The notes: generated by a model from the sequence alone, not told the origin. A stretch of 64,000 nt of DNA from Thermoplasmata archaeon (GCA_049585415.1 JBAUZT010000027.1:993-64992), one strand, 5' to 3'. Positions 12,520 through 56,680 are shown, counted from the stretch's first letter. Made by a program: numbers and translations.

Positions 12520-12582
12520 GGCCATTTCGGCTCGCGCGGCAAGGCGTTAAACGCCTCCCTCGCTCGCGACCGGGGGCTTCTC

Positions 12583-13344
12583 TTGGTGCTGGGACTCATT
12601 CCCGCCGCGTTCGGGATCGTCTTCACGGTCGCCCTCGCCGTGGGCGCCGTCGCGGCGTACGCCCTCACTCCGCTCGCGGGAGTCGTGGCGGCCGCCTTCG
12701 GTGTGGTCATCGTCGCTCTCGTGGGCTTCCCCTTCCTTGCCCTCCTCATCCTGTTCGTGGTCGGGAGCGTTCTCGCGACCCGGTTTCGGATCCAGGAGAA
12801 GCGGAGCAAGCACGTTCAGGAGGGCGTGGCGGGAGAGCGCGGCGTCTCGAACGTGGTCGCGCACATCGTGCTCCCGACCGCACTCGCGATCGCCGGCGGC
12901 GTGGCGCCTCCGCTCCTCGCGACACCGGCACTCGCGGTCCTCTACGCCAGCGCCCTCGCGTTCGGCGCGGCGGACACCTTCGCGAGCGAGCTCGGCGTTC
13001 TTTCGGGGTCCGCTCGCAGCATCCTCACGTTCCGCAAAGTGGAGCCCGGTACGAACGGGGGAGTCTCCACGGTCGGGGAGGCATGGGCGGTGGTCGGAGC
13101 GGCGATCACCGCGTTCGTTGGGGTCGGCCTCTTCCGTCTGTTCTCGACCGCCCTGCCCTCCACCGCGGTGTTCCTGGGCACCGTCGTCGTCGCGGGATTC
13201 CTGGGTTGTCAGGTCGATTCCGTCCTCGGGGAGACGCTCGAGAACCGGGGCATCCTCACGAAGGGGTCGACCAACTTCCTCGGCATGCTGTCCTCGATCG
13301 CGATCGCCGCGTTGATCCTCACGCTGCTCGGGGTGGCGCTGTGA
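12583..13344 (+). CDS. DUF92/TMEM19-like integral membrane protein
   Basis: Polytopic hydrophobic protein containing GTNGGVS and TFASELG motifs. TTG start. The stop overlaps the queC GTG start. Confidence 0.5.
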   Translation: MVLGLIPAAFGIVFTVALAVGAVAAYALTPLAGVVAAAFGVVIVALVGFPFLALLILFVVGSVLATRFRIQEKRSKHVQEGVAGERGVSNVVAHIVLPTALAIAGGVAPPLLATPALAVLYASALAFGAADTFASELGVLSGSARSILTFRKVEPGTNGGVSTVGEAWAVVGAAITAFVGVGLFRLFSTALPSTAVFLGTVVVAGFLGCQVDSVLGETLENRGILTKGSTNFLGMLSSIAIAALILTLLGVAL

Positions 13345-14033
13345 GACCGGCCCACCGCTCGCCGGGGAGCGTCGTGCTGCTCTCGGGCGGCATGGACTCC
13401 GCGACCTGCCTCGCGCTCGCCGTCCGTAGGGGCGGTCCGGTCCACGCGCTGACGGTGCTCTACGGGCAGCGCCACGATCGAGAGGTTCGCGCGGCCCGGG
13501 CCCTCGCCCGCAGATACCACGTCCACCGACACGTGGTCGTCTCCCTGGCGCTCGGCCCGCTGTTGGATTCCTCGTTGACCGACCGGCGACGACCCCTCCC
13601 CACCCGGGGGGTTCGACCCCGGCGGATCCCGTCGACCTACGTGCCGGCGCGGAACACGATCCTGCTCGGAGTCGCCCTCGGGTACGCCGAGAGCCACCGG
13701 CTCGAGTCGATCTGGATCGGCGCCAACGCGATCGACTACTCCGGTTATCCCGATTGTCGTCCGGAGTTCTTCCGCGCGTTCGAGCGTCTCGCGCGCGTCG
13801 CGACGAAGGCAGGGGTCGAGCGCCACGTTCGAATCCGCGTGCGAGCGCCGCTCCTCTCCAAGACGAAAGCGGATATCGTACGTTGGGGGGAGCGCCTCGG
13901 GGTGCCGTGGGCGCTCACGTGGAGTTGCTACGCGGGAGGAAGCGTACCGTGCGGTCGGTGCGATTCGTGCCGTCTCCGGGATCGGGGGTTCCGAGCCGCC
14001 GGAGTGGCGGACCCGCTCCGAGCCACTCGTTAG
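13341..14033 (+). CDS. queC: 7-cyano-7-deazaguanine synthase QueC
   Basis: LLSGGMDS PP-loop and C-terminal CGRCDSCRLR zinc motif. This is the in-frame tail of track ORF 12309..14033; GTG start at 13341. Confidence 0.85.
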   Translation: MRPAHRSPGSVVLLSGGMDSATCLALAVRRGGPVHALTVLYGQRHDREVRAARALARRYHVHRHVVVSLALGPLLDSSLTDRRRPLPTRGVRPRRIPSTYVPARNTILLGVALGYAESHRLESIWIGANAIDYSGYPDCRPEFFRAFERLARVATKAGVERHVRIRVRAPLLSKTKADIVRWGERLGVPWALTWSCYAGGSVPCGRCDSCRLRDRGFRAAGVADPLRATR

Positions 14034-14491
14034 CTCGCCTTCGCGGCCGAGGCGGCGGCCGCCGGTGCCGCGGGGGGAATGGGAGTCACGGGGGACGTGC
14101 AAAACGAGCAGCGCTTCGCTGCGAGCGGGATCTGAGAGAGACATTCGGGACAGGGTCGGGTTGTCGCCGTGGCCGCCGGCGCCTTCGCGGCCTTGCGGTC
14201 TTGGTATCGCTGATAGGGGAGCGCGATCAGGAAGAATATCACGAGGACGATCAGCGCGAACGAGATGATGGAGTCGAGGAAGAGTCCCTGCAGGATCGAG
14301 CTGCCGTTCACCGTGTAGCGCCAGGCGGAGAAGTTGAAGCTCCCCACGATCCCGATGAGCGGAGTGAAGATGTTCGTGACGAGCGAGGTGATCAGCGCGG
14401 TGAACGCCGCCCCGATCACGAACGCGACCGCGAGCTGGACCAGGTTCCCCTGGGTGACGAATCTGACGAAATCCTCCCGGATGGTCGCCAT
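14030..14491 (-). CDS. mscL: Large-conductance mechanosensitive channel MscL with a C-terminal Cys4 zinc-ribbon extension
   Basis: N-terminus FVTQGNLVQLAVAFVIGAAF is the MscL signature, with two TM helices. The C-terminus has CPEC...CSFC. Confidence 0.8.
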   Translation of the reverse strand: MATIREDFVRFVTQGNLVQLAVAFVIGAAFTALITSLVTNIFTPLIGIVGSFNFSAWRYTVNGSSILQGLFLDSIISFALIVLVIFFLIALPYQRYQDRKAAKAPAATATTRPCPECLSQIPLAAKRCSFCTSPVTPIPPAAPAAAASAAKAS

Positions 14492-14545
14492 CGGTGTCCC
14501 GAAGGATTCGAAAGGAGACCTATTTGGAAGTTGTTTCGGACCGGC

Positions 14546-16348
14546 TCACATGCGCTCGAGCCGCGGAATGCCGAGAAGGTCGAGCGAATTGCCCAGGGTT
14601 TGCCGGACCGCGGCCACGAGCGCGAGGCGGCTCTCTCGCTCCGCTCCGGAGCGGAGCACCGGCACCGCATGGTAGAACCGATTGAACTGATCGGCGAGGT
14701 CGTGCGCGTACCCGGCGATCGCTTGGACATGGGCGGTGCGGGCGGAGTTGACCACGGTCCGCGGCAGTCCGGCCACGACCCGGATGAGCGCGCGCTCCTC
14801 GGGGTCCGAGAGCCGGGCCGCATCGAAGGGGAACGGGCCGGCGTCGACCCCGGCTTTTCGGAGGAGGCTCGAGGCCCGGGCGTACGAGTACTGGACGAAC
14901 GGTCCGCTGCGTCCCTCGAATGAGAGCGCGTCCTCCCAGCGGAAGACGACCGGCTTCTCCGGGGCGACCCGCGCCACGTGGTAGCGGATCGCGGCGGTCG
15001 CCACCGATTCTGCGATGCGGTCGACATCGCCTTCGGCCAAGTCCTCGCGGCGCGCGAGCACCTCGTGACGGGCCCGGTCGACCGCCTCCGTGAGCAGATG
15101 GTCGAGCCAGACCGCCGATCCCCCACGAGTGGACATCCGACCCCCGTCGGGGACCGTGATGTCCTGATAGATCACGTAGACCGGCCGGCGCGTCTCGCCG
15201 CATTCCGCGAGCAGCGCGTCGAGGGTCCGAGCGTGGAGCTGATGGTCCTGGCCGAGCACGTCGACGACCCGGCCGAACCGCGCGAATTTCGCGAGGTGAT
15301 ACGCGACATCGCGGGTGACATAGAGCGTCGTCCCGTTCCCCCGCTGAAAGATGACGCGCGTGGACTCCTTGGGAAGATCATAGCTCGAGGCATCGATCGC
15401 CCAGGCGCCGTTCTCCTCTCGGACCGCGTGAGGGGCCCGGCGCAGCCGTTCGAGCACTCGCTCGACCGACCCGTCCCGAAGGAAATCGGATTCCCAGACG
15501 AACTCATCGAACCCGATCCCGAGCCGAGCGAGCGACGCGAGCATGCCGTCGAGGATCGATTGGGTGAGCTCGCGGTGCTGCGGTGGCGGCGAACCGCTCT
15601 CCAATTGCCGAACGAGTTCGGCGACCTCCGCCTGCGCGTCCGGATGTTCCTTGAGGTAGGCACTGGCCGCGGGGTACGGACGGCCCCGATGCGCGTCGAC
15701 CTTCTCGCCCTCGACCTCCTCTCCGTCGACCGCCTTACGGATCGGCTCGGGCCATTCGTCGCGGGGTTTCGACCAGATCCAGGTGATCATCGCCGCCTGG
15801 CGTCCCATGTCGTCGACGTAGTACTGGGTCGTGACCGGGGTGCCGGAGGCGCGGACGATCCGGGCTAGCGTGTCGCCGATGATCGCGTTCCTCACCCGGC
15901 CGATGTGAAATGGACCGGTGGGGTTCGCGCTCGTGTGCTCCACGCACGCCGGGGCGCCCGTGAGCGCGGCGTGCCCGTACTTCGACCCTCGGGCGAGGAC
16001 CGTGCCGAGCGTCGCGGCGGTGAGCCGTGCCGGATCGATCGTGAAGTTGGCATACGCGCCCTTCGCGCGAACCTCGGAGATCCCTTCGGAGCGAGGAAAG
16101 GTAGCGGCGAGCTCCAAGGCGAACTTCTCGGGTGGCCGTTTCGCGACGGCTGCGGCGCGATGCGCGGGGAACGCGACATCCCCCTCTTCGCCCCCCTCCA
16201 GGTTGAGCTGCGCGAGGATCGCCTCTCTCGGGAGCGGAGCCCCGAGCGCAGCGAGCGAGCGTTCGAGGCCGGCGACGATCGCCTCGACAAATTCTTGCGT
16301 CGGGTCGGTAACCTCGGACGCGGGGTCGACGGGATCGGTCACGACCAT
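14546..16348 (-). CDS. argS: Arginyl-tRNA synthetase
   Basis: 600 aa. Class I HIGH-like motif (PTGPFHIGRVR). Anticodon-binding DALR domain. Confidence 0.9.
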   Translation of the reverse strand: MVVTDPVDPASEVTDPTQEFVEAIVAGLERSLAALGAPLPREAILAQLNLEGGEEGDVAFPAHRAAAVAKRPPEKFALELAATFPRSEGISEVRAKGAYANFTIDPARLTAATLGTVLARGSKYGHAALTGAPACVEHTSANPTGPFHIGRVRNAIIGDTLARIVRASGTPVTTQYYVDDMGRQAAMITWIWSKPRDEWPEPIRKAVDGEEVEGEKVDAHRGRPYPAASAYLKEHPDAQAEVAELVRQLESGSPPPQHRELTQSILDGMLASLARLGIGFDEFVWESDFLRDGSVERVLERLRRAPHAVREENGAWAIDASSYDLPKESTRVIFQRGNGTTLYVTRDVAYHLAKFARFGRVVDVLGQDHQLHARTLDALLAECGETRRPVYVIYQDITVPDGGRMSTRGGSAVWLDHLLTEAVDRARHEVLARREDLAEGDVDRIAESVATAAIRYHVARVAPEKPVVFRWEDALSFEGRSGPFVQYSYARASSLLRKAGVDAGPFPFDAARLSDPEERALIRVVAGLPRTVVNSARTAHVQAIAGYAHDLADQFNRFYHAVPVLRSGAERESRLALVAAVRQTLGNSLDLLGIPRLERM

Positions 16349-20184: not shown

Positions 20185-22800
20185 ATGTCGTACCACAGCA
20201 AGATTCTGCTCCTGGTCGTGGCCGCGGTTGCCGTAACGATGGTGCTGCCGGGGACTTCGGCGCTCCACAGCGGGGTTTCGGGGGGAGCCACCCCGGCCGC
20301 TTCGGTGTCGATCGCGCCCGCCTCCTCGGTCGTCGCGACCAGCGCACTCTCGGCCGCTGGCCCCTCCGCTGCGAGCTCTGCCGCCGCCGTCTCGTCCGCT
20401 ACGGCGGTAGCCGCGGGTACCCAGGGCCGAGTGCTGAGCGAACTCAAAGCGCTGAATGCTCCGATGAAGGATGTGTTCCTTCCGAATTTTGCGCCTGACG
20501 TTTCGATTCAGGGAGGTGTGGTCACGCCGTTGTACGACAACACCCCGGCGCCGATGGGGATCGGGGACTTCGGGGTCGTCGACCAGAGCGGTCACAATGT
20601 CGCGACGGTCACCTACGCGCCCAGCGTGAAAGCGTCGGTAACCCTCAACAACGTCGACCCGGTCTATGTCACCTCTTCGGCGCCGGACGAGTTCACAATG
20701 CAGCTCAACACCGTCGCGTCGAACATCGACCTCTTCGGCAGTGACAGCTACCAGTTCTGGCTCCAGAACGTTCCGATCTACTCCGAGACGACGCAGACGC
20801 TCTCCTTCGAGGACAACGTCTGGAACTTCTCGAACCCCTCCACCACGTTCCAGGCCAGCTCGATCTACGCTCATGGTCCGGGCGGGTTCGTCGATGGGAA
20901 CTTGGCCTACATTGCGGTGGGACCGAGCTTCCACGTCCCCACCCCGTTCACCGTCGTCATTTACAACAACCTCACCCTGGTCGACGGTCGATCGACGGTG
21001 TTCTTCAACTACACGGTGATCCCGTCCACCGGCAGTCCGTTCTCGGGCTCCTACGACTTCGTCGAGTTCAACTCGACGCCCGAGGTCACCGGGCCCGCGC
21101 CCCAGCCGGTTAACGAGATCAACGGCGGGCAGGTCAACCCCACCGGATTCCTCTTGGACGACGCGGAGATCATGCTTGGCGGTCCTGGCGGCGGGTCGAC
21201 GACCACGCTCTTCAACATCGCGGGGTCGATGGGGCTCTGGCTCCTTCCGAACGGGTCGAAGACCTACAAGACCGTCCCTTCCGCCTACGACTTCGGGACC
21301 GACACGGGCGAGACGTCCGAAGGGATCGCCGAATACGCGACCACTGGCAGCAGCCACACGGCCGAGCTCGGGAGCGGACCGTCGATGCTCTACGGCCTTT
21401 GGGGCCTCGTCGGCGCACACCCGGGCAAGGAAACGATCACCCTGGACCTCTCCCCGTCGAACGCGTTCGTCTTCGCGAGCCCCGGCGCCACGTTCAACGA
21501 GAGCGCGGCCGGCTGGGGACCCACGCCGGTAACGGGACCCGCGGTCTACCAGCTCCCGCCGGGAGCGTACAGTTTCGAGTACCTCCTGGCCGACCACAAC
21601 CCCGCGGCGGCGACCTACGGTTCGAGCGGGACGTGGACGGTCTCCCTCAGTTCGAACCCGTCGCTCGGCGACTACACACCGCTGTGGGCGGAGTCGAACA
21701 GTCAGCTGGCCGGGATCTCTCAAGGAGGGAAGGGGACCTCGGGGAATCCGTACGTCCTCGACAACGGACCCGCGAACATCAACCCGCTCTTCGGAGAGGT
21801 GAACGATTATGACTTCCAGGTGTTCCCGGGCATCTACCTGCTCGGCACGACCGCGTTCGTGACGGCGGCGGATCTGCCAGCGTTCCAGGTGACGTACCTT
21901 CCGAGCCAGATCGCGGGTGCCCGGCTGATTCAGGACGGCCTGCCGCTCACCGACCAGCTGAACGTCGAGCTCTACGAGACCTCCCACGTGTCGATCATCG
22001 ACAGCGATCAGCTCTCGGGATGGTTCGCGGCGTTCGGCTCGTTCGGGGAGCCCGCAACGATCTACTTGTGGGGCGCCACGAACACCCTCATCGCCGACAA
22101 CACGTTCTACGTGGAGTCGGACGGGATCACGGCGGCCGGCTACAATGCGACGGACGGCGGGCACAACCTGATCTGGGGGAACGTCTTCTACCCGGAGCCG
22201 GTGGTATCCCCGAGCTCGGCCTTTATCCTCAACTACGGACTCTTCCCCGCCTTCTGGGAGTTCGAGTCGCTGGACGTGGTCTTCAACAACGCGTTCCTCA
22301 CCCCGATCACGGCGGTCAACTTCCAGGAGAACTTCTACACGGGAGCGGGGCAGCTCAATCACGACCAGTGGAACGTGAAGGTCCAGCCCTCGACCGACGT
22401 CCGCGCGAAGAACGGTTTCGATCTCTCGGGGAGCATTCTCGGACTGAGCTGGGAGGGTGGAAACTACTGGGCCAACTACGGTACCCCGCAAGACCCGTAC
22501 GGAGTGCTACCCTACAACGACGGTGGCCTCATCCAGTTGGGCGGGGACTCTCACCCCTTGATCCCGTTCACGCTCTACGACGTCCGGTTCACCGAGACCG
22601 GTCTACCGTCCGGAAGCGCGTGGTCGGTCACGATCAACGGCTACACGCAGACCACAACCGGAAAGTCGATCACGTTCGTGGAACCGAACGGGACTTACGC
22701 CTTTGTGGTCACTCCGCCGGCCGGGTTCACCGCGAGCCCTTCGGTCGGCGGCCTGATTGTGGCAGGGTTGAACGTCCTCGAAAAGATCGGGTTCACCTGA
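20185..22800 (+). CDS. Large secreted cell-surface protein, sequon-rich, with parallel beta-helix (NosD/pectin-lyase-like) repeats
   Basis: N-terminal signal/anchor (KILLLVVAAVAVTMVLPG). Ser/Ala/Thr linker. More than 20 N-x-S/T sequons. Repeated GxN/NxxF beta-helix-like rungs (NNTFYVESDG..., NLIWGNVFY...). Confidence 0.75.
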   Translation: MSYHSKILLLVVAAVAVTMVLPGTSALHSGVSGGATPAASVSIAPASSVVATSALSAAGPSAASSAAAVSSATAVAAGTQGRVLSELKALNAPMKDVFLPNFAPDVSIQGGVVTPLYDNTPAPMGIGDFGVVDQSGHNVATVTYAPSVKASVTLNNVDPVYVTSSAPDEFTMQLNTVASNIDLFGSDSYQFWLQNVPIYSETTQTLSFEDNVWNFSNPSTTFQASSIYAHGPGGFVDGNLAYIAVGPSFHVPTPFTVVIYNNLTLVDGRSTVFFNYTVIPSTGSPFSGSYDFVEFNSTPEVTGPAPQPVNEINGGQVNPTGFLLDDAEIMLGGPGGGSTTTLFNIAGSMGLWLLPNGSKTYKTVPSAYDFGTDTGETSEGIAEYATTGSSHTAELGSGPSMLYGLWGLVGAHPGKETITLDLSPSNAFVFASPGATFNESAAGWGPTPVTGPAVYQLPPGAYSFEYLLADHNPAAATYGSSGTWTVSLSSNPSLGDYTPLWAESNSQLAGISQGGKGTSGNPYVLDNGPANINPLFGEVNDYDFQVFPGIYLLGTTAFVTAADLPAFQVTYLPSQIAGARLIQDGLPLTDQLNVELYETSHVSIIDSDQLSGWFAAFGSFGEPATIYLWGATNTLIADNTFYVESDGITAAGYNATDGGHNLIWGNVFYPEPVVSPSSAFILNYGLFPAFWEFESLDVVFNNAFLTPITAVNFQENFYTGAGQLNHDQWNVKVQPSTDVRAKNGFDLSGSILGLSWEGGNYWANYGTPQDPYGVLPYNDGGLIQLGGDSHPLIPFTLYDVRFTETGLPSGSAWSVTINGYTQTTTGKSITFVEPNGTYAFVVTPPAGFTASPSVGGLIVAGLNVLEKIGFT

Positions 22801-26999: not shown

Positions 27000-27668
27000 A
27001 TGCCCGATCATTACACGCAACTGCTCGAGTGGCGCCGCAACGAGGCCGCGGTGCGTGGCCTCTCGAAGCTTCCGCACGACTTCTATCGTACCACGACCGC
27101 CTACCTCGCGGACGTGCGACGTTCCTACGAGAGCGAGCTCCGGGAGAATCCGTCCGGCCGCAAGGGGGAGATCTCTCGACAGACGTACCAGCGAGCGAGC
27201 CAGATCTCGCGCGACATCGTCGAGGCGCGGACCCAGAAAGTCTTGACCGCGGCGTTCCAGGCGAGCATCGGCGGAACGCCCGACCTCCCCAACGCGCTCG
27301 CGGAGGAGCGGGCCGTCTTCGATTCCGTACTGACCTCCCTCGCCCTGCACCGCCACGACGCGGCACCGTACCTCGAGCCCGCGGGCCCCGCGAAGTCTCC
27401 CGCGGTCGCCGCTCCGAACCCGCCGGCGCTCGCCCCCCCTCCCCCCGCACCGGAAACGCCGGCCCCCACGACGCGGAGCGGTCGGCCCCCCGCGCCGCTC
27501 ACCTATGTCCGGGTCGTGAAGAACAGCCGCCCGATCGAGGTCGGTTCCGAGACGATCGACCTCCGCGAGGACGACATCCTCTCGCTCCCCCCCGACGCCG
27601 CGAAGCTCCTGATCGATGCCAAGATCGCGGAACCCGTGGCGACGGGGCCGAACCGGCCGGTTACGTAA
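27000..27668 (+). CDS. GINS complex subunit (Gins51/Sld5-like)
   Basis: N-terminal helical A-domain motif LSKLPHDFY. Pro/Ala linker. C-terminal B-domain (YVRVVKNSRPIEV...LIDAKIAEPV). Confidence 0.55.
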   Translation: MPDHYTQLLEWRRNEAAVRGLSKLPHDFYRTTTAYLADVRRSYESELRENPSGRKGEISRQTYQRASQISRDIVEARTQKVLTAAFQASIGGTPDLPNALAEERAVFDSVLTSLALHRHDAAPYLEPAGPAKSPAVAAPNPPALAPPPPAPETPAPTTRSGRPPAPLTYVRVVKNSRPIEVGSETIDLREDDILSLPPDAAKLLIDAKIAEPVATGPNRPVT

Positions 27669-28791
27669 CGCGGGCGAGTCGCTCGGCGGACGCCGGCGGG
27701 GCGAGCTCGAGGGCGCGGAACCGGTCGAACCCGAACAGGAGGTTCTTTGCCGCCAACTGCAGTCGGACCTTCGCCTCCGCCGAATTCGCGGCACGGATCG
27801 CCGAGTCAAGGAGGGCCGGGAACCCCCACGCTCCGAGCGCTTCCGCCTGCGAGCGATACCCCAGCTCCGCGAGGCCGCTCGCCTTCGCCGCGGCGCGAAC
27901 TCGCGAGAAGTTGACGAACGTCGAGAGGTCGGACGTTCCGGGGGCGGCGAGCGGGTCCGACACGAAGCGGTGCGCCCGCACCGCCGCGAGGGTTCCCCCG
28001 GGGTGTCCCATCCACAGTTCGCGCTCTTCCGCGCCAAAGTCGAGAACGATCGCGAGACCCTCGGCGAGGTGGTCCGCGACCTCTCGAACGGTCGCCTCGG
28101 CGGCCGGCGAGACCTCCACTACGAGGTCGGTCGACTCGGGTGCGGGTAACGGGGTCCCGGGGATCGGTCGAACGAACGGCTTCTCCGCGGGCTCGACGCG
28201 ACCGGCCGCGACGCGCACGCCGAGCTCGTGCCATGCGCCATCGTGCCAGTGCAGCCGGCGAGCGGGTTGCGCGTCGAGGAACTCGTTCGCGAGGACGACG
28301 CCCCGGATCGGGCCCAGGGCGCCGAGCGAGTCCGAACGATGAACGGCGACGCGGCCCCTGAGGGGTCGGAGGCGTTCCTCGGCCTCCCGAAGGCGCGCCG
28401 ACGCCCGGTCGACCAGTACGTACTCGAGGCCGGGCGGGTCATCCCGAAGGGAGGCGACGAGCCCCTCCGCGAGGGTTCCGTCTCCGGGACCCAGCTCCAC
28501 GATCCGGAACGCCGAGGACCCGGCGATCGCGCGCCGGACGACGCGGATCCGTTCCGCGATGCTGCGAGCGAAGATCGGGCTCACGTGGGCGGCGGTGTAG
28601 AACTCCCCTTCCCGCCCGAGGGGCGACCGGGGCCGGTCATAGAACCCGAGGCCTTCCGCGTACAGGGCGATCTCCATGAAACGGTCGAACGGGAGGAACC
28701 CGTCGTCCCGTGCGACCTCGTGCAAGCGTTCGACCACGAGGAGCGAGCGCGCGGATTCCTCCGCGTCGAGCGGAGGGGGCGCGTCCGGCAT
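27661..28791 (-). CDS. MidA/NDUFAF7-like SAM-dependent methyltransferase (DUF185)
   Basis: Hallmark ELGPGDGTL motif and LANEFLDAQP motif. The ATG at 28791 was computed and checked against the sequence. The remainder of track ORF 27661..30201 is shadow. Confidence 0.7.
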   Translation of the reverse strand: MPDAPPPLDAEESARSLLVVERLHEVARDDGFLPFDRFMEIALYAEGLGFYDRPRSPLGREGEFYTAAHVSPIFARSIAERIRVVRRAIAGSSAFRIVELGPGDGTLAEGLVASLRDDPPGLEYVLVDRASARLREAEERLRPLRGRVAVHRSDSLGALGPIRGVVLANEFLDAQPARRLHWHDGAWHELGVRVAAGRVEPAEKPFVRPIPGTPLPAPESTDLVVEVSPAAEATVREVADHLAEGLAIVLDFGAEERELWMGHPGGTLAAVRAHRFVSDPLAAPGTSDLSTFVNFSRVRAAAKASGLAELGYRSQAEALGAWGFPALLDSAIRAANSAEAKVRLQLAAKNLLFGFDRFRALELAPPASAERLARVT

Positions 28792-28811
28792 GGGGTCGCG
28801 CGCGCCGGACC

Positions 28812-29594
28812 CTACCCAATGTAGCCGAGGTCGTCCCGTGGGGGCGCGCCGGGGGTCGCTGGTTCTCCCGAATGCTGCTCCGCCTCGTGGATCTTCTGCG
28901 CGATCCGGTCGATCTCCTTGGCCTTCGCCTGGAGCGCGGTGAAATCGAGGTCGATCTTGAGCACGCGCGCGAGCACCTTGAGGACGGCTTCCGCGCTGCG
29001 CGGGTCGACGAAGTAACCGCTCGTCTCCCCCATGAGGCAGACCCCTTCCATACCGGCCAGGCGACCGAGCCCGAGGAAGAGCCCGCTCGCCCCGATGAGG
29101 CCCCCGCCCGGGTCGTTCCGGGAGAAGACGACCGAGAACTTCTTCATCAGCTCGACCCGCGAGGCGCTCGTCGCCGCGCCGAGGACGCGAGGCTGCTCGA
29201 TGACGCGCCCCTGGGCGAAACCGGCGAGGGTGAACACCTCGCGAACCCCGAGCGCGTGACAGTAGTCGAGCACCCGCTCGGTGATCTCGTACTGCCCCTC
29301 GGGGCTGATCCCCTGGTAGTCGCCGCCGAGGATCAGGAGGTCGTGCTGGGCCGCCGCGGGAGCCTTCCAGTAAGAGAGGTCGTTGGAGACGAGGCGGATG
29401 ATCCCCTCTTCCGAGACGTACACCTGGGGCGGGAAGAACTTCGAGTGGACGGTCGCGAGCGGTTTCGCCGGCAGCTGGTCCCGTAGGTAGTCCGCGGCGA
29501 GCTTTCCTACATTGCCGACGCCGGGAAGGCCCTCGATCAGGATCGGGTCCCGAAGGGTGACCTTCTCGAGCGTGCGAATGACGACGTCTTCCAC
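28812..29594 (-). CDS. PAC2-family protein (proteasome assembly chaperone-like, COG1938)
   Basis: ILIEGLPGVGNVGKLAADYL N-terminal motif of the archaeal PAC2 family. Confidence 0.7.
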   Translation of the reverse strand: MEDVVIRTLEKVTLRDPILIEGLPGVGNVGKLAADYLRDQLPAKPLATVHSKFFPPQVYVSEEGIIRLVSNDLSYWKAPAAAQHDLLILGGDYQGISPEGQYEITERVLDYCHALGVREVFTLAGFAQGRVIEQPRVLGAATSASRVELMKKFSVVFSRNDPGGGLIGASGLFLGLGRLAGMEGVCLMGETSGYFVDPRSAEAVLKVLARVLKIDLDFTALQAKAKEIDRIAQKIHEAEQHSGEPATPGAPPRDDLGYIG

Positions 29595-29657
29595 GATTTC
29601 CCCGACGATGGGAGCCGGCCGCTGCCGATAAAGACTCGGTTACCGGCGCGTAGGCCA

Positions 29658-30428
29658 CTATCCCGGGGGGCTCTCGTCGGGACCGGTGGTCCAGCCGCTC
29701 TCTCCGACGTGGACGGGAGAGATCCGGCAGAGGTCCGGTCGGTTCCCGACCTTCTCGGTGAACAGGGTATGGGCGTAGCGCGCCCCGTGCACGTCCGCTC
29801 GGAGGTCGAAGACGAGGTCCGCGAGGTCCTGGAGGAGCCCGTAGACCGCCCGGTCGTGCTGGACCGAGTGGATGGTGAGGAGCGCCTGGCCGCCGATCGT
29901 CTGGCATCGGTGGCGGATCTGACGGGCGACCGTGGTCACGTCGTGCGGTTCGAGCACCTCGAAGAAGAAATCGACCGAGTCGAGGATCAGCCGGAACGGG
30001 GAGTCCATCCCGGCGAGGTCCGAGAGCATTCGGTTCGTCAGGCTGAACGTCGTGGTCGTCCGGTCCCGTGGGGTCGCGCCGACGAGGTCGTCCAGGGAGA
30101 GCCCCTGTTCTCGGGCGCGCGCGATATCCAGCCCGCGCACCAGCACCCGTTCGTAGTACTCGTCCGCGAGGTTGACGACCTTGATCTCGGCGGGGTCCCA
30201 TCCGAAGTCCTCGAACGCCTTGCGGACGTCTCCGGTCCGCTCGAACGTCGTGTAGAACAGGACCGGGACCCGGCCGGTACCGGCGTGCGCGAACTGCTTC
30301 GCGAGCAAGGGCGCCCCCGAGCCCGAGTGCCCCGACAAGAGGGCGAGCCAGCCGGGCGGTAGCGCGGCGAAGAGCGGACCGTCGATGTCGGGGATCCCAA
30401 AGATCTGGTCGGAGTCGCTCAACGTCAT
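29658..30428 (-). CDS. KaiC/RecA-like domain protein with a degenerate Walker A (GHSGSGAP)
   Basis: KaiC-like layout (GIPDIDGPLF...LLSGHSGSGAPLLAKQF), but the P-loop Lys/Thr are replaced by Ala/Pro. 4-nt overlap with the upstream gene. Confidence 0.65.
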   Translation of the reverse strand: MTLSDSDQIFGIPDIDGPLFAALPPGWLALLSGHSGSGAPLLAKQFAHAGTGRVPVLFYTTFERTGDVRKAFEDFGWDPAEIKVVNLADEYYERVLVRGLDIARAREQGLSLDDLVGATPRDRTTTTFSLTNRMLSDLAGMDSPFRLILDSVDFFFEVLEPHDVTTVARQIRHRCQTIGGQALLTIHSVQHDRAVYGLLQDLADLVFDLRADVHGARYAHTLFTEKVGNRPDLCRISPVHVGESGWTTGPDESPPG

Positions 30429-31006
30429 CGTCCCCGGCCGACGTCGATCGTCTCGTCGACGAGCAGGCTCAACATCTGCTCGAGTCCCCCGGCTTCCTCG
30501 TCCGAGGTCATCAGGATCAGCGCGAGCGCGTTCCGCGTCTTCAGGTTCGTGAGGAAGATATGGAAGAACTCGGAAAGGAGGTCGCGAGGGTTGTGGATCG
30601 CGAGGGCGTTCAAGCTGTCGACGACCACGATCGACCGCGGGTGCGGGAACTTCCGCAGAAGGTAGTCGACCCGCAGCATGATCTCCTCGAGCGCCCGCGG
30701 CGTCTCGAGGTAGGTCGCGTTGGGGAGCGGGTTCGCGTAGTTCATCATGATATGACTGATCACATCGACGAACGAGATCCGGTCCTGCGGAACGTCGAGC
30801 GCCTGGGCGAGCGACCAGACGAACGAGGCGGGGTTGGTGACCGTGATGTAGATCGTGTGCGCGTCCTTCTCGCTCCCGACGTCGCGGAGCGTGGCGTTGA
30901 GCACGGCGAAGTAGTGGTCCGCGTACTCCCGCGGGTCCAGCTTCAGCGCGACCGCACTGCCTCCGGGGATCGAGCGGAGCCGCTCCCCGATGTCCACCGG
31001 GGGCAC
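30425..31006 (-). CDS. KaiC/RecA-like domain protein lacking a Walker A motif
   Basis: RecA-fold landmarks: Walker-B-like SIVVVDSLNAL, then ALILMTSD. No GxxxxGK[ST]. Confidence 0.55.
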   Translation of the reverse strand: MPPVDIGERLRSIPGGSAVALKLDPREYADHYFAVLNATLRDVGSEKDAHTIYITVTNPASFVWSLAQALDVPQDRISFVDVISHIMMNYANPLPNATYLETPRALEEIMLRVDYLLRKFPHPRSIVVVDSLNALAIHNPRDLLSEFFHIFLTNLKTRNALALILMTSDEEAGGLEQMLSLLVDETIDVGRGR

Positions 31007-31010
31007 GGGA

Positions 31011-31859
31011 TTACGCTCCCTCGGGGTGGCTGCCCTTCAGGTGGGGCGCCATCAGGAGGCCGATCGGCGTGAGTTCGATCACGTACTGGGCCCGGGAGTG
31101 CGCGGTGCCCCGCATCTTGACGATCTGAAGGACCCGCAAAATGTCCCCCTGACGGCGGGTGTTCCACAGCAGGATGACCCCGTCCACGATCGCCTCCTCG
31201 ACGCCGTGCATCGAGTAGCGGCCCGCGGTCGGACCGATCTCGGAGACGAGGAGGGACGTGCACCCGAGCGCGCTCAGCGACTGGCCGAGGCGGAGCATGA
31301 AATCCCGGATCGCCTCGTCGCGTCGGATCCGATAGCAGACCGAGGTGAGGCTGTCGAGGACGAGCCGCTTCACCCCGAGGGTCTTCACGAGGTCGTGGAT
31401 CGTGCGGATGAGGATGTCGATCTCGTCCGGGGTGAGCTCCTCGCGCTCGAGCCCGAGCTTGTCGTAGAGGTTCGGGAGGTCGACGAAGACGAGCGACCCG
31501 TCGCTCACGAGGTCCGGTCGAAAGAACTCGAAGGTGGAGAGGTTCTGGATCAACTTCTGGGACGCCTCGGTCACGGACAGGAAGAGCGAACGCTCGCCCC
31601 GCTCGGCCCCCCGGACCAGGAACTCGAGGCAGAGCGTGGTCTTCCCCGTGCCGACGCTCCCCGCCACGAGCACCATGTTGCCGCGGGGGATGCCCCCGCC
31701 GAGGATGTCGTCGAGCCCCTCGATTCCCGTGGCGCACCGCTCGAGCACGTTCGCGGGGGCCATGAGCGACCGAGGGGCCGGGGGCTCGGCCGGCAACGGC
31801 GGGGCCGCGGGAGCTTCCATCGAGAGAACGAGCCGTTCCGAGCCTATGAGGGTTGTCAT
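31011..31859 (-). CDS. KaiC-like RecA-superfamily ATPase (intact)
   Basis: GIEGLDDILGGGIPRGNMVLVAGSVGTGKTTLCLEF: intact Walker A, with Walker B. The ATG at 31859 forms an ATGA overlap with the upstream HerA-like gene. Confidence 0.75.
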   Translation of the reverse strand: MTTLIGSERLVLSMEAPAAPPLPAEPPAPRSLMAPANVLERCATGIEGLDDILGGGIPRGNMVLVAGSVGTGKTTLCLEFLVRGAERGERSLFLSVTEASQKLIQNLSTFEFFRPDLVSDGSLVFVDLPNLYDKLGLEREELTPDEIDILIRTIHDLVKTLGVKRLVLDSLTSVCYRIRRDEAIRDFMLRLGQSLSALGCTSLLVSEIGPTAGRYSMHGVEEAIVDGVILLWNTRRQGDILRVLQIVKMRGTAHSRAQYVIELTPIGLLMAPHLKGSHPEGA

Positions 31860-34165
31860 TCGGCGGAACGCTCCGGTCCCTCCTCGAGAGCGGAGGTGAG
31901 CGCGAGTTCCTCGACTCGTTGGCGGTCGACCCACCAACACGCCCCGTGGTCGTCCCGACCTCGACGGACGATGGCGCCCCCGCGGGCCAACCGGCTCCCC
32001 AGCCCTCGAAGGTCGCGCTCGTTCGGGCCGATTGCCCGACGCAGCTCCGCGAGCGAGATGCGGACCACCGCGGGGTCACCATCGGGGACCGAACGGCGAA
32101 GCATCTCCAAAAAAAGGGCGAGCGGCGCCTCCCGGACCGGTGACCTCCAAGGTACCGCTTCCAAAGCCACCCCCGCGGTTCGTCTCGGGACTCGGGCCGT
32201 GCGGACCCAGTGGAACGAGTTGCCCTTGCCGAGCAGCAGCGCCGCCTCTCCCCGGGGCAGCGAGAGAATGGATTCGGGGGAGATCCCGTGGACGAGGCGC
32301 GAGAACTCTCGGGCCTCTTCGGGCGACCCGCGAAATCCCACGAAGTCCGCGACGTTCGTCCAGATCGATTCCGCCACCGCCTCGGGCAACGACGCGATCG
32401 CCTGCGTCGCGACGACCACGTGAATGTTCCGGCGGCGACCAAGCCGCAGCATCTCCGCGAGGCTCTCGTGCGCGAACCATTGCGCTTCGTCCAGCACCAC
32501 GAACGTCTTCGCCCCGTTCGACCTCGCAAGCAGCTCGGACCAGACAAGCGCGAGATAGACGGAGAGCAGGTAGCGCGCGGTCGACTCCCCGACGTTCGCG
32601 GCATCGCCCGAGACGAGCAGGATCCGCCCCGGCCCGAGGAGGTCCTGCACTCGGGTCTCGGGCGAGCGTCGGCAGAACGCCCGTGTCAGGAGAGGATTGC
32701 GGATCACCTCGAACAGCAGACGACGCGCACCGTCCGCGTCCTCCGGCCGGCTTCGGATGCGGTCGGCGAGTTCGCCTACGGGGCCCTGCGCTTCGGGGGG
32801 AAGGGTGCGAAAGCCGCGTCCCCCGCAAGCGAGCAGCGCGTGCGCGTCCTCCAGCGTGCCCTCGGGGAGGGAAGCTGCGGCCCCGAGGGCCCGAAGGAGC
32901 ATCTCTTCGAGTCTCGGGCCCCAGAACCCCGAATCGACGTACCGACCGGAGCGGACCCGCCGAAGGGAATGGACGAGGTCGTTGAGCCGCCGTTCCCGCT
33001 GCGCGATCCGGAGGGTGGATTCCGGTCCGATGCCTTCGAGGGCGTTCAACCCCGGCGCCGTCTCCGGGTCGATGTGAGTCAAGCGACCCGACACCGCGGG
33101 AGCGATCTCCGCCCGGACCGCGTCGGCGGTTTCTCCGAGGGGGTCGAACAGCACGAGACCCGCGCCCGAGACGATCCGTCGGCTCAACGCGACCAGGAGG
33201 GAGCTCTTGCCCATCCCCGTCTCCCCGAGCACGGCGAGGTGGCGACCTTGATGAGGTTCGATGGGGGGGCCGATGGCAATACCTGCCGCCGTGCGGCCGA
33301 GCGCGAGCAAGGACGCCGATTCGACCCCAGACCCGTCGACCTCGCCCGCCACGAAACAATCGGGGGTCGGCATCGTCAGTGCGACCTCGGAGTCGCTCAT
33401 CGGGAACCCGTCCGCCCAGCGACGCGTCCATCGCCGCTGATGAAATCTGATGCCGTTCCCGGTCGGCGTACGCGTGGCGGACTCGAGCGCACGGGCCACC
33501 ATCGAATCGCGGTCCGGGGTCCCGAGCCGCACTTCGGAGCGTAGGCGAATTCTCCCCGCCCAGAACGTCGGATTTTCGGGAAGCTCCACGCTCGGGGTCC
33601 GGACGGGAGCTCCCCCCCTTCCGGCAGGCGGTCGTCCCGGCGGCAATTCGTTCACGGAGGCTCGGGGAGTCCACCGACTGCGATGCACGAGGGGCGTCGC
33701 CCGAAACGACCATTCGAGGCGAATCCCCGGAGGCATCGCGCTGAGCGCCATCACCACGCAATCAAGGGTGGAACCCCCGTCCGCCTCCGAACGAAGTGGG
33801 GTCGGCCAGGGTTCGCAACGGTACCCTTCCCATCCCCTCTCGACCCCCGGCCCCTCGGTCCTGCCCGGTGCCCAACGCCACTGAAACGGGTCGTACGCTC
33901 GCACGAGTGCTCGTCCCGCCCACCGAGTCGATATCGGCCCGTCGGGAACCAGTGAGAGTTTGGGTTCCGGTCCGGATTGGACGAAAGTTCGGAACGACAC
34001 TCCCGAACCGTGTCCCGCCCGCAACGCGACCGTCAGCCGAGCCCGAAGCGAACGAAGATCCTCCGGACGGCTCGTGCCCGGGGGACGCGAGCGAAAGACC
34101 CAGCGGCCGTTTTCGGGGACCGACGTCACGGGGCGGAACCGATGCGTCCCGGGATTCGTCCTCAC
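31856..34165 (-). CDS. HerA/FtsK-superfamily P-loop ATPase (DUF87 / AAA-like, VirB4/TraG-like)
   Basis: Walker A LAVLGETGMGKSSL. Walker B FVVLDEAQWF. NIHVVVATQ motif typical of HerA/FtsK. About 280-aa non-membrane N-terminal region. Confidence 0.7.
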   Translation of the reverse strand: MRTNPGTHRFRPVTSVPENGRWVFRSRPPGTSRPEDLRSLRARLTVALRAGHGSGVSFRTFVQSGPEPKLSLVPDGPISTRWAGRALVRAYDPFQWRWAPGRTEGPGVERGWEGYRCEPWPTPLRSEADGGSTLDCVVMALSAMPPGIRLEWSFRATPLVHRSRWTPRASVNELPPGRPPAGRGGAPVRTPSVELPENPTFWAGRIRLRSEVRLGTPDRDSMVARALESATRTPTGNGIRFHQRRWTRRWADGFPMSDSEVALTMPTPDCFVAGEVDGSGVESASLLALGRTAAGIAIGPPIEPHQGRHLAVLGETGMGKSSLLVALSRRIVSGAGLVLFDPLGETADAVRAEIAPAVSGRLTHIDPETAPGLNALEGIGPESTLRIAQRERRLNDLVHSLRRVRSGRYVDSGFWGPRLEEMLLRALGAAASLPEGTLEDAHALLACGGRGFRTLPPEAQGPVGELADRIRSRPEDADGARRLLFEVIRNPLLTRAFCRRSPETRVQDLLGPGRILLVSGDAANVGESTARYLLSVYLALVWSELLARSNGAKTFVVLDEAQWFAHESLAEMLRLGRRRNIHVVVATQAIASLPEAVAESIWTNVADFVGFRGSPEEAREFSRLVHGISPESILSLPRGEAALLLGKGNSFHWVRTARVPRRTAGVALEAVPWRSPVREAPLALFLEMLRRSVPDGDPAVVRISLAELRRAIGPNERDLRGLGSRLARGGAIVRRGRDDHGACWWVDRQRVEELALTSALEEGPERSAE

Positions 34166-46546: not shown

Positions 46547-46605
46547 TGTCGCAAGCCTGCGCTCAACAACGGTACAAATAGGGGCCTCGGCTCGCCTTCC
46601 GTACC

Positions 46606-47715
46606 ATGAGCGAGAGTCCCTCGTCCCTCGAGCGCGCCGCCGCTCGCAACATCGTGACCAGATACCTCAAGGTCCGAGCGGGAGAGAACGCGATCATCGA
46701 GTCCTGGGACCACACGATGCCTATGGCGTCGGCGATGGTCGATGAGGTCCGCCGTGTGGGCGGCAAGGTCCTCTTCGTCTACAACGACGAGGACGCGTGG
46801 TGGCGCGCGATCGACCGGAAGCAGGCCAAGCTCCTCGGCGAGTCGAGCGCCCCAGAGTGGGCGGCGTTGAAAGCCGCGGACGTGTATGTGAATTTCTGGG
46901 GTCCGGGCGACGCCGACCGCATCGAGAAGGATTCCGAGGACGCCCTCGACGAAGCGTTCGCCTGGAACTGGCCCTGGTACGCGGTCGCCCGGAAGACGGG
47001 GCTCCGCGGTGTGCGGATGACCACGGGGTTCGTAACGGAGGGACGCGCTAGGAAGTGGGGCGTGGACCGGGCGCAGTGGGAGGAAAGCATGCTCCGGGCA
47101 TGTCTCGTCGACCCGGAGGAGATGGCCAAACGCGGGGCTCGGCTCGGCAAGGCGCTCTCCCGGGGGAGGAAAGTGCGGATCACCCACTCCAACGGGACCG
47201 ACCTGGAAGTCGCCCTGGCCGGGGTCGCACCACGGTTGTTCGATGGGAGACCCCACCCGTGGGACAAGAGGTCCTCCCCATCGGGCATGGTCGAGAGCAT
47301 CCCCGCCGGACGCGTCGAAATGGCCCTCGACTCCAAAACCGCGGAGGGAAGTCTCCGCGCCAACCGCCGGACCAACATCTGGTGGAACGGGCACTCCGGT
47401 GGAACGCTCGAATTCGCGGACGGCAAGCTGACGTCGTACTCCTTCGAGGATGGAGAGGAAGAGTTCACCCGTCGGTACAAGAACGCCACGGCGGGCAAGG
47501 ACCGTGCCAGCGTTCTCAAACTCGGGCTGAACCCGGCCGTCAAGGCCGTCCCCAACTTGGAGTACTGTGAGCGCGGCAGCGTCTCCCTGCAAATCGGGGG
47601 GAACCGGAATCTCGGGGGCACCAACGGATCGAATTTCTTTAGTTGGTTTTCGCTCGCCGGCTCCGAGATCGCGATAGACGGGACTCCCGTCATCCGCGCG
47701 GGGAAGATCCTGTAG
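46606..47715 (+). CDS. Aminopeptidase, M29 (AmpS/PepS thermophilic metalloprotease) family
   Basis: 369 aa. N-terminal region and conserved metal-ligand positions are M29-like. Confidence 0.75.
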   Translation: MSESPSSLERAAARNIVTRYLKVRAGENAIIESWDHTMPMASAMVDEVRRVGGKVLFVYNDEDAWWRAIDRKQAKLLGESSAPEWAALKAADVYVNFWGPGDADRIEKDSEDALDEAFAWNWPWYAVARKTGLRGVRMTTGFVTEGRARKWGVDRAQWEESMLRACLVDPEEMAKRGARLGKALSRGRKVRITHSNGTDLEVALAGVAPRLFDGRPHPWDKRSSPSGMVESIPAGRVEMALDSKTAEGSLRANRRTNIWWNGHSGGTLEFADGKLTSYSFEDGEEEFTRRYKNATAGKDRASVLKLGLNPAVKAVPNLEYCERGSVSLQIGGNRNLGGTNGSNFFSWFSLAGSEIAIDGTPVIRAGKIL

Positions 47716-56500: not shown

Positions 56501-56680
56501 GGTCCTCCCTGCGCAGACCCGGACCGAATTCCTCGGCCCTCGCGCGCTGACCGTCCCAACTCTCGGCCGTCATATTTAGCCCCTCCTTTCCGGTCGGATA
56601 CGGCCCGACTCCCCCCGGGATTCTCCCTACCAAGACCGAGGCCCTCTCGGGCGAGCCGGCTTCTCTACGGCCCTCGGCTT

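Follow-up and report, generated by a model that had tools for sequence, protein, structure and literature searches.

Does a gene for an FtsK/HerA-superfamily ATPase, followed on the same strand by three KaiC-like genes, encode one machine or two neighbouring ones? KaiC-like ATPases have been proposed as central regulators in archaea, and very few of them have known partners. The locus lies in chromosomal DNA of a Thermoplasmata MAG from an uncultured soil archaeon, which has Ca. Lutacidiplasma among its relatives; the whole stretch analysed, 64,000 nucleotides, is referred to here as the window. A first-pass annotation had described a tight operon of four, and the four ORFs lie where it placed them, all on the minus strand (31856-34165, 31011-31940, 30425-31006 and 29658-30428), and are real genes. 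The account that we favour, with a confidence somewhat better than even, is that they make up two adjacent, separable units: a heteromeric KaiC-like ATPase and a faster-evolving orphan VirB4-like ATPase. The features on which the argument draws are the following.

31856..34165, minus strand: FtsK/HerA-superfamily ATPase, 769 aa, annotated 'DUF87', VirB4/TrwB/DptH-like by fold
33371..34108, minus strand: N-terminal alpha/beta domain of the ATPase (aa ~20-265), no Pfam match, sequence differing between clades
31886..32128, minus strand: putative winged-helix-like C-terminal domain of the ATPase (aa ~680-760), from AF2 topology and conserved residues
31821..31855, minus strand: conserved promoter-like intergenic motif of the KaiC operon, with BRE-like ACAAC, TATA-like TCATAG and CGGCTC
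31011..31820, minus strand: KaiC1, 269 aa, single-domain KaiC-like ATPase, sole competent copy of the triad
30425..31006, minus strand: KaiC2, 193 aa, RecA/KaiC-fold pseudo-ATPase, no P-loop, Walker-B-like VVVDSLN kept
29658..30428, minus strand: KaiC3, 256 aa, KaiC-like, degenerate P-loop GHSGSGAP (Lys and Thr lost), catalytic EE changed to ER
29612..29634, minus strand: PAC2 promoter, strongly conserved TATA box TCTTTATC (29634-29627), CGGCTC (29617-29612) 9 nt on
28812..29594, minus strand: PAC2-family (proteasome-assembly-chaperone-like) gene with its own promoter, downstream of the triad
27661..28800, minus strand: Methyltransf_28 (MidA/NDUFAF7-type SAM methyltransferase; Pfam 3.4e-38), after PAC2, start approximate

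The surroundings are those of a housekeeping block, in the order Nop56, fibrillarin, DRG GTPase, the ATPase and KaiC module, PAC2, methyltransferase, GINS, Toprim and L15e. They are retained in more than 80 species-level genomes, the ~20 kb region being syntenic throughout the clade (the Methyltransf_28 gene included), and the locus holds a fixed position without island features, with even GC across the window. This setting bears directly on the idea, raised at first sight of the locus, of a defence function, in which a HerA-like or MADS-like ATPase would act against phages with accessory proteins. PADLOC matches are at the level of the ATPase superfamily only (mad8, 2e-18; generic HerA; mad2, E 0.008), and neither PAC2 nor any of the KaiC proteins has one. 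No relatives were found in viral contigs, the methyltransferase belongs to the MidA/NDUFAF7 type, and the locus contains neither a nuclease nor any other effector. Added to the fixed position and to the low divergence of KaiC1, KaiC2 and PAC2 described below, these observations largely refute an anti-phage role, which we regard as extremely improbable.

The ATPase carries the motifs first reported for it, GETGMGKSS (Walker A), VVLDEAQ (Walker B) and HVVVATQ, and its catalytic residues are intact and invariant among homologues. A RecA-like core, the Walker A and Walker B (hhhhDE) motifs, the conserved polar residue that follows strand 4 and structural similarity place it in the FtsK/HerA superfamily, and the initial view that it is nevertheless not the canonical HerA holds. 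Two NCBIfam HerA equivalog models, each with a cut-off of 800 bits, give it only 23.6 and 17.6, the HAS beta-barrel N-domain of canonical HerA is absent from the AF2 model, and NurA, Mre11 and Rad50 were found neither by Pfam scan of the neighbours within ~10 kb nor in homologous loci. As modelled, the protein is structurally VirB4/TrwB/DptH-like, these families being closer to it by fold than canonical HerA. The large N-domain is likewise real: matches to homologues of ~785 aa span 95-98% of the ORF, conserved residues begin at W22 and the AF2 pLDDT is 86-97; the 577 aa of the public annotation are too short. This domain is mixed alpha/beta in the model, with strand-helix repeats, aligns with the TrwK/VirB4 N-domain and probably corresponds to the N-terminal domain of VirB4. 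At the other end, a C-terminal domain with the predicted order H-E-H-H-E-E-H (pLDDT 84-94) and conserved R720, G723, L726 and W744 had no search match, and from its topology we infer a winged-helix fold.

That the ATPase might fall into a known VirB4-type clade with an established neighbourhood, which the first-pass annotation had named as grounds for rejecting its reading, is partly true: its fold is nearest to VirB4, T4CP and DptH, but no T4SS, Ced or Ted neighbourhood accompanies it. No VirB6/CedA-like channel, VirB2/CedA1-like pilin or other membrane protein is encoded within ~10 kb or in syntenic loci, and no transmembrane segment is evident in the ATPase itself, which also lacks the N-terminal transmembrane anchor and the relaxosome/T4SS context of a type IV coupling protein (TrwB/TraG/TraD). 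It differs from VirB4, CedB and TedB in its putative extra C-terminal winged helix and in its chromosomal housekeeping setting. Archaea, it would appear, can keep VirB4-type motors even where a secretion apparatus is lacking.

The triad is of a different character. Across ~70 orthologous loci GSVGTGKTT is invariant in KaiC1, KaiC3 has a degenerate P-loop that varies between orthologues and KaiC2 lacks one altogether, which bears out the original count of one competent and two degenerate copies. In KaiC1, moreover, VLDSLTS forms the Walker B motif, SVTEAS contains a catalytic Glu and KMRGT the Lys/Arg finger; on our reading of the alignment, this trans-acting K-x-R finger appears to be conserved in KaiC1 only. 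It matches Pfam KaiC at 5e-56 (190.1 bits, gathering cut-off 26.6) and the KaiC structures in the PDB at 1e-57, falls under the cut-off of every NCBIfam equivalog and shows 66-95% identity across the clade. KaiC3 still reaches 37 bits with the same Pfam model (gathering cut-off 26.6), and its alignment to the CI domain of KaiC shows GTGKT replaced by GSGAP and EE by ER. The model of KaiC2 is of only moderate confidence (pLDDT 72.7). The 4-nt gap between KaiC1 and KaiC2 and the ATGA overlap between KaiC2 and KaiC3 had been described correctly, both internal starts follow purine-rich SD-like runs, and the three genes appear to be internally translation-coupled. The triad is under very strong purifying selection: mean pairwise p-distances are 0.24 for KaiC1, 0.21 for KaiC2 and 0.19 for PAC2, which are the least divergent of the proteins compared and level with the DRG GTPase (0.22), as against 0.56 for the ATPase. 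GC3 is 0.89-0.92 in the KaiC genes and 0.78 in the ATPase gene.

KaiC1 is a typical archaeal single-domain KaiC-like ATPase, resembling PH0186 (E 2e-38) and PH0284 (E 5e-31). The triad is not circadian KaiC proper, since its members are single-domain proteins of 193-269 aa without the CI+CII arrangement (NCBIfam circ_KaiC, 103 bits against 546), and Pfam scans revealed no KaiB-like neighbour. Nor are these the ordinary ArlH or RadB copies, with ArlH at 40.3 bits against 215 and radB at 34.7 against 172.4, and there are no arl (archaellum) genes nearby. The same scores weigh against a role in recombination and repair, with the triad as a RadA-paralogue mediator (aRadC/SSO2452-like) and the ATPase as a DNA translocase. 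Similarity to KaiC, at 1e-57, far exceeds that to RadA/RadB, genes for a nuclease, Mre11 or Rad50 were not found nearby, and any coupling of the ATPase to the triad faces the difficulties set out below for a four-subunit machine; we therefore consider a repair module very unlikely.

How firmly the ATPase and the triad are joined depends in the first place on the start of KaiC1. The ATGA overlap reported at 31856-31859 does not stand: its ATG is specific to this window, and the conserved start is the ATG at 31820-31818 (MEAPAAPP...), 35 nt past the ATPase stop; homologues are 268-271 aa long and most have a gap of 23-27 nt. Two gene starts in the public annotation are corrected by this analysis. 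The intervening region yielded no Rfam match and no significant RNA fold, and no SD precedes the KaiC1 ATG. It holds instead a promoter-like motif, with consensus CCACAACCCTCTTAGGGtCGGAgCGGCTCGTTTtacCGATG over ~86 distinct loci, whose TATA-like TCATAG lies at 31849-31844 on the minus strand (-29 to -24 from the KaiC1 ATG) and whose CGGCTC lies at 31835-31830. Within it, GAACGGCTCGTTC (31838-31826) is palindromic and occurs nowhere else in the window; only 5 of 78 loci have it in exact form. The motif is retained here though non-coding, and is also retained in five loci where insertions of 0.2-4.5 kb separate the ATPase gene from KaiC1. Because it is conserved where non-coding and past insertions, KaiC1-2-3 probably form their own operon, with leaderless transcription predicted from sequence. 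The predicted promoter overlaps the coding sequence for the 'PQPS' tail at the C-terminus of the upstream protein, and probably constrains that tail. Of the tight operon of four, then, the coupling of the three KaiC genes stands, whereas the inclusion of the ATPase gene is put in doubt by the TATA-like box of KaiC1 and by a motif that outlasts insertions. A TATA-like box in or just after the upstream gene leaves read-through possible, so that a four-gene transcript may also occur.

The promoter-like motif ahead of KaiC1 weakens what would otherwise be the obvious reading, namely a single four-subunit machine in which a co-expressed VirB4-like hexamer is stacked with a KaiC1/2/3 ring, the ring gating or scaffolding the motor as ArlH does for ArlI, and the winged helix bringing the assembly to the DNA or RNA that it would translocate or survey. 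The genes share a strand, the gap is 23-35 nt in most loci, the catalytic residues of the motor are invariant and binding of a KaiC-like protein to a hexameric motor has precedent. Moreover, the ATPase and KaiC genes are adjacent in 78 of 84 family loci, including three of a divergent clade with a different N-domain and without the PAC2 linkage, which hints that the ATPase-KaiC linkage outlasts that between KaiC and PAC2. Within the clade, however, adjacency is weak evidence because the whole ~20 kb is syntenic. Divergence is markedly unequal, 0.56 for the ATPase against 0.21-0.37 for its supposed partners, and the mirror-tree partial correlation of the ATPase with KaiC3 (0.48) does not rise above those of the ATPase with the methyltransferase (0.45) or of KaiC3 with GINS (0.52). 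In another Thermoplasmata lineage, relatives of the ATPase are flanked by PcrB and a DEAD helicase and have no KaiC gene in their vicinity, and one in-clade genome keeps the ATPase and has lost the triad. On balance we consider a single machine of four subunits rather unlikely.

The low divergence shared by KaiC1, KaiC2 and PAC2 invites a different partnership, in which the triad and PAC2 would form a proteostasis or assembly module, for example in building the proteasome or another complex, and the VirB4-like ATPase would be a mere neighbour. The downstream gene is a sound member of its family (Pfam PAC2 2e-53; NCBIfam TIGR00162 258.5 bits, cut-off 200; identity 72-95% in the clade), and its promoter has the layout of that of KaiC1, a TATA box followed after 8-9 nt by CGGCTC. 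Of 85 loci, 53 have this hexamer upstream of KaiC1, whereas each of nine other gene families has it in front of the gene in only 0-5 loci; the sharing is partial, with the exact element in just 20 of 71 PAC2 promoters. A promoter-proximal element common to both suggests that the triad and PAC2 may be co-regulated. Against a joint module stand that partial sharing, the absence of PAC2 after the triad in one divergent locus and the conserved PAC2 C-terminus DLGYIG, which we read as non-canonical for an HbYX motif. We know of no reported link between KaiC and PAC2, and judge such a module quite unlikely.

Under the preferred reading of two units, the products of KaiC1, KaiC2 and KaiC3 would assemble 1:1:1 as a RecA-type ring, as translational coupling and the hexameric habit of the family suggest, most simply as a dimer of trimers comparable to Elp456. 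KaiC1 alone would bind and hydrolyse ATP, KaiC2 and KaiC3 being fixed structural or partner-binding pseudo-subunits. As the K-x-R finger seems confined to KaiC1, a strict (1-2-3)x2 ring may hydrolyse ATP poorly, and the subunits could also combine in other ratios. The complex could work as a switch or adaptor that responds slowly to nucleotide, as has been proposed for KaiC-like proteins of archaea. The second unit would be a soluble ATPase whose N-domain is VirB4-like, whose core resembles VirB4, T4CP and DptH and which ends in a winged helix, presumably a hexameric motor directed at nucleic acids that has lost any T4SS partners.

It is possible, by analogy, that the first unit regulates the second in the manner of ArlH. 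According to work cited in PMC10983859, ArlH (FlaH), a single-domain KaiC-like protein, regulates ArlI, the hexameric motor of the archaellum, encoded next to it, in a nucleotide- and phosphorylation-dependent way. As in that system, a KaiC-like gene here adjoins a motor ATPase gene, and FlaH structures are among the fold matches; unlike it, the motor is of the VirB4/HerA type and not of the secretion type, three paralogues (two of them degenerate) stand in place of one, and the interaction is putative. The boldest extension would be a chromosomally encoded two-ring machine for DNA or RNA handling specific to soil Thermoplasmata, in which a KaiC1/2/3 hetero-hexamer, serving as a slow timer or switch, caps and gates a membrane-free, domesticated VirB4 motor whose winged helix binds DNA. 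We think this unlikely; if true, the ArlH-ArlI principle would have a second, independent example, and a KaiC-like hetero-oligomer with fixed pseudo-subunits would be on record for the first time.

In the papers searched, no module of such genes is described, in agreement with the first-pass annotation. Inactivated KaiC (iKaiC) domains as such have already been described (Makarova, Galperin and Koonin 2017, as cited in PMC5847659); what had no counterpart in the papers searched is a fixed, apparently translation-coupled triad of one active and two degenerate copies, with housekeeping-level conservation, beside a VirB4-like ATPase. The triad does not belong to Elp456 (PAXNEB 21.1 bits, cut-off 28; Iki1 15.4 bits, cut-off 22.5), and the window contains no Elp3. 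If it forms a ring, it would nonetheless give prokaryotes a counterpart to the heteromeric RecA-fold rings exemplified by Elp456 and the RAD51-paralogue complexes, and would offer a clean system in which to study the role of pseudo-ATPase subunits.

The KaiC triad and the VirB4-like ATPase gene that precedes it have the high third-position G+C (GC3) of real genes of this genome.

31856–34165, minus strand: ATPase ORF, 769 aa, GC3 0.78
31011–31940, minus strand: longest ORF of KaiC1, with its conserved start at ATG 31820, GC3 within 0.89–0.92
30425–31006, minus strand: KaiC2 ORF, 193 aa, GC3 within 0.89–0.92
29658–30428, minus strand: KaiC3 ORF, 256 aa, GC3 within 0.89–0.92

KaiC1 is a clear KaiC-family protein (Pfam KaiC, 5e-56) that matches cyanobacterial and other KaiC structures with E-values down to 1e-57, as well as the single-domain Pyrococcus proteins PH0186 and PH0284, and scores below every NCBIfam equivalog cut-off. 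KaiC3 is recognised at 3e-9, and KaiC2 gives sub-threshold matches only, to KaiC and DUF7504. Across about 70 orthologous sets, the GSVGTGKTT and KMRGT motifs of KaiC1 are invariant, the P-loop region of KaiC3 is variable and a P-loop is never present in KaiC2; when KaiC3 is aligned to KaiC CI, GTGKT becomes GSGAP and the catalytic EE becomes ER. Judged from these motif states and this alignment, the predicted composition of one competent ATPase and two pseudo-ATPases, already proposed in the first-pass annotation, is confirmed as a stable family trait. Inactivated KaiC domains have been described before, as cited in PMC5847659. The narrow KaiC2 family, whose alignment diversity is low, reached an E-value of only about 0.1 against KaiC1 or KaiC3 in hhalign, and its fold was assessed by structure prediction instead; in a search aimed at KaiC2 relatives beyond the clade, all 120 matches listed are at least 77% identical. 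ArlH, RadB and circadian KaiC were each rejected as the identity of the triad proteins on failing their defining tests, which also disposes of ordinary ArlH/RadB housekeeping copies, the alternative raised at the outset. A repair role like that of RadA paralogues, or one like that of Elp456, could be drawn by analogy, but in the corresponding family tests the proteins either fail or score no higher than they do for the rest of the RecA-fold families.

The three KaiC genes are tightly joined, with a 4-nt gap between KaiC1 and KaiC2, an ATGA overlap between KaiC2 and KaiC3, and a purine-rich, Shine–Dalgarno (SD)-like run before each internal start. These two junctions stand as first described, but the ATGA overlap between the ATPase gene and KaiC1 does not, its ATG being found in this window alone. 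Both that ATG (31859) and the GTG that opens the longest KaiC1 ORF (31940) lie upstream of the conserved start, ATG 31820 (MEAPAAPP...), which is 35 nt beyond the ATPase stop; the gap is 23–27 nt in most homologues. No SD precedes the conserved KaiC1 ATG, and a consensus, CCACAACCCTCTTAGGGtCGGAgCGGCTCGTTTtacCG followed by ATG, is common to about 86 distinct loci. It includes a TCTTAG/TCATAG/TAAAAG box at −29 to −24 from the ATG, where an archaeal TATA box would lie if transcription began at the ATG, with a BRE-like ACAAC upstream, and we infer a putative TATA box and BRE of such a transcript. KaiC1-2-3 is thus probably an operon of its own, with read-through from the ATPase gene possible, and the tight four-gene operon proposed earlier is not supported, since KaiC1 has its own conserved promoter-like motif and the ATGA overlap is not conserved.

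In most homologues the promoter-like motif (window 31821–31860, minus strand; upstream of KaiC1 in L001–L107) coincides with the conserved PQPS-stop tail of the ATPase, whose codons are CCA CAA CCC TCT TAG. The window ATPase stops 12 nt earlier and the motif is intact there as non-coding DNA; it also lies directly before KaiC1 where the two genes are 0.2–4.5 kb apart (L012, L018, L024, L082 and L083), and ATPases without a PQPS tail are common. For these reasons the constraint is read as acting on DNA, not protein, and the ATPase tail looks as though it has been shaped by the overlapping KaiC promoter. Two other readings of the intergenic region were rejected: an RNA element (no Rfam match; fold z-score −0.93) and an operator at the palindrome GAACGnnnCGTTC, of which just 5 of 78 loci have an exact copy, so that only its CGGCTC(G)TT core is conserved. 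The five insertions that separate the ATPase gene from KaiC1 are as follows.

12380–15275: insertion in L012
12062–13603: insertion in L024
12344–16868: insertion in L083
12425–13029: insertion in L082
12482–12680: insertion in L018

In L012, L024, L082 and L083, Pfam recognises nothing in the longest inserted ORFs. Near-identical sequence (…CAATCCAGCGAAGCCCTCTTAGGGA…) lies at the KaiC-proximal end of the L012 and L024 insertions, and CCCTCTTAGGG, found at both ends of the L012 insertion, points to a so far unrecognised mobile element that duplicated its target site.

The public annotation of the ATPase (577 aa) misses about 190 codons at the start. Homologues of full length, about 785 aa, span 95–98% of the 769-aa ORF, with residues conserved from W22 on, and the large N-domain noted earlier is therefore real. 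Pfam recognises DUF87 ('HerA central domain') and TraG-D_C, the catalytic residues are intact, and every motif first quoted for the four genes is present. An AF2 model (pLDDT 86) of this minus-strand product has three parts.

Residues ~20–265: alpha/beta N-domain
After the N-domain: ATPase core, carrying an all-alpha insertion
C-terminal unit: elements in the order H-E-H-H-E-E

We read the C-terminal unit as a putative winged helix. The top Foldseek matches are full-length TrwK/VirB4 proteins (about 800 columns aligned, TM ~0.5), which makes a VirB4-like N-domain more probable than a HAS barrel. Against cut-offs of 800, the NCBIfam HerA models give 18–24 bits, and no NurA, Mre11, Rad50, VirB6-like or pilin-like gene was found among the neighbours. 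Canonical HerA is rejected on these scores, the N-domain and the neighbourhood, in keeping with the initial view, and the fold matches, low HerA scores and missing partner genes identify the protein as an orphan within the FtsK/HerA superfamily, soluble and VirB4/T4CP-like.

Whether this ATPase is functionally coupled to the triad was weighed on several lines of evidence. In 84 distinct family loci whose sequence extends far enough downstream, KaiC1 is downstream of the ATPase in 81 and adjacent in 78, and a divergent clade whose N-domain differs (L089, L090, L099) keeps the order DRG (divergent), ATPase, KaiC1-2-3, while PAC2 is lost in L089. The whole region of about 20 kb is, however, syntenic clade-wide, which makes adjacency little informative. 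Upstream in the window lie a divergent DRG-type GTPase, fibrillarin, Nop56, a PurF-like amidotransferase and L10, beside which L1 and L12 are seen in syntenic loci only; downstream on the same strand are a PAC2-family protein and a Methyltransf_28 protein, and beyond them a GINS-like protein, a Toprim protein, L15e, a SpoU methylase and FtsY. These neighbours are archaeal housekeeping genes. Other layouts also occur: L069 keeps an intact ATPase but lacks the triad, PAC2 following directly, L025 is rearranged with response regulators downstream, and L092 has an IS4/5 transposase downstream. Relatives of the ATPase in an AT-rich Thermoplasmata lineage (P0249, P0256, P0261; profile E ~1e-50) lie after UbiA-PcrB and convergent with a DEAD helicase, without KaiC or PAC2 within 9 kb, and more distant DUF87 ATPases (L108–L168) have no KaiC neighbours; neighbourhood clustering of L108–L131 was confounded by shadow ORFs. 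Divergence is likewise unequal, the mean p-distance being 0.56 for the ATPase against 0.24, 0.21 and 0.37 for KaiC1, KaiC2 and KaiC3 (PAC2, 0.19; DRG, 0.22). A mirror-tree of pairwise p-distances in 38 loci, with DRG and Nop56 held constant by partial correlation, gave 0.34–0.61 for KaiC–KaiC pairs and was not discriminating, with similar values for ATPase–KaiC3 (0.48), ATPase–methyltransferase (0.45) and KaiC3–GINS (0.52). On balance, functional coupling is rather unlikely. In the AT-rich loci L086–L088, downstream of UbiA, the gene for a distant ATPase orthologue shares about 20–26 nt with the 3′ end of the gene for GGGP synthase (PcrB). Like its counterpart in the window, it has the L1-L10-L12 cluster within a few kb, which points to a chromosomal position that is old but whose neighbours differ by lineage.

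A possible link of another kind is that of the triad to PAC2 (28812–29594, minus strand; TIGR00162, 258 bits against a cut-off of 200). The PAC2 promoter region has a strongly conserved TATA box, CCTTTATCG, with CGGCTC 9 nt on (29612–29634), and the box-to-CGGCTC spacing before KaiC1 is 8 nt (31830–31849). Of 85 distinct loci, 53 have CGGCTC in the 70 nt that precede KaiC1, and 20 of 71 have it before PAC2; for each of nine further gene families compared there, it is present in 0–5. These counts lend moderate support to a shared cis-element, and so to co-regulation, and say nothing of protein function. A window-wide search for an AT-rich box with CGGCTC found 10 instances against 9.9 expected, not above chance; a similar arrangement, AAATAG-N-CGGCTCG and then ATG, lies near 46588, ahead of an M29-like peptidase gene (46582–47715). 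The PAC2 C-terminus, DLGYIG (28812–28835), is highly conserved in 69 loci with Tyr third from the end, and appears close to, but is not, canonical HbYX, the proteasome-docking motif. The MidA/NDUFAF7-type methyltransferase (Methyltransf_28; 27661–28800, minus strand) follows PAC2 clade-wide; the type is known chiefly from mitochondria, where it methylates arginine in complex I.

The possible defence role first suggested finds no support and is rejected on the housekeeping context, conservation and generic PADLOC matches: mad8 (2e-18), HerA and mad2 (E 0.008) are all superfamily-level, the last, of the Methyltransf_28 protein, probably reflecting just its SAM-binding motif. Effector, island and viral relatives are all lacking, the last of these being a further ground for the rejection, and the window (63–70% G+C) is without a compositional island. 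The window also encodes an 871-aa thermopsin-family protease (20185–22800, plus strand) and a PAS-PAS histidine kinase (54926–56569, minus strand); apart from these it is ordinary housekeeping and metabolic chromosome, with ArgRS, a THUMP-domain protein, polyprenyl synthetase, eIF2-alpha, AsnA, a molybdopterin oxidoreductase, and MFS and MscS transporters. The exact sequences are already public, annotated as 'DUF87 domain-containing protein' and 'hypothetical protein', in 'Thermoplasmata archaeon' MAGs. A one-genome-per-species scan gave 80 loci, mostly from soil and peat and including Candidatus Lutacidiplasma silvani; 79 are titled Thermoplasmata/Thermoplasmatales MAGs and one is labelled only 'bacterium'.

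Translational coupling of three hexamer-family paralogues and their fixed complementary degeneracy point to an obligate hetero-oligomer, which in its simplest form would be a (1-2-3)x2 ring in which KaiC1 supplies two catalytic P-loops and the other four subunits are structural or bind partners. Because only KaiC1 keeps the K-x-R finger, the geometry of catalysis in a strict hetero-ring is uncertain. Such a ring may act as a slow nucleotide-dependent switch, a role proposed for archaeal KaiC-like proteins in work cited in PMC5847659 and PMC10983859. For the ATPase, the fold relatives and the putative winged helix lead us to predict a hexameric motor directed at nucleic acids; should the two units interact, the ArlH–ArlI pair would be a precedent.

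Overall, what the first-pass annotation observed largely holds, apart from the four-gene operon, and its interpretation does so in part. Each component belongs to a known superfamily, and no description of a fixed active/pseudo/pseudo triad or of a membrane-free VirB4-like ATPase with a winged helix was found in the searchable literature. Elp456 serves as the model for the (1-2-3)x2 form, and an Elongator role for the triad would be analogy only. The known archaeal VirB4-like ATPases CedB, CedD and TedB are accompanied by membrane partners (PMC9905601, PMC11868833), whereas the ATPase described here is VirB4-like but orphan and soluble.
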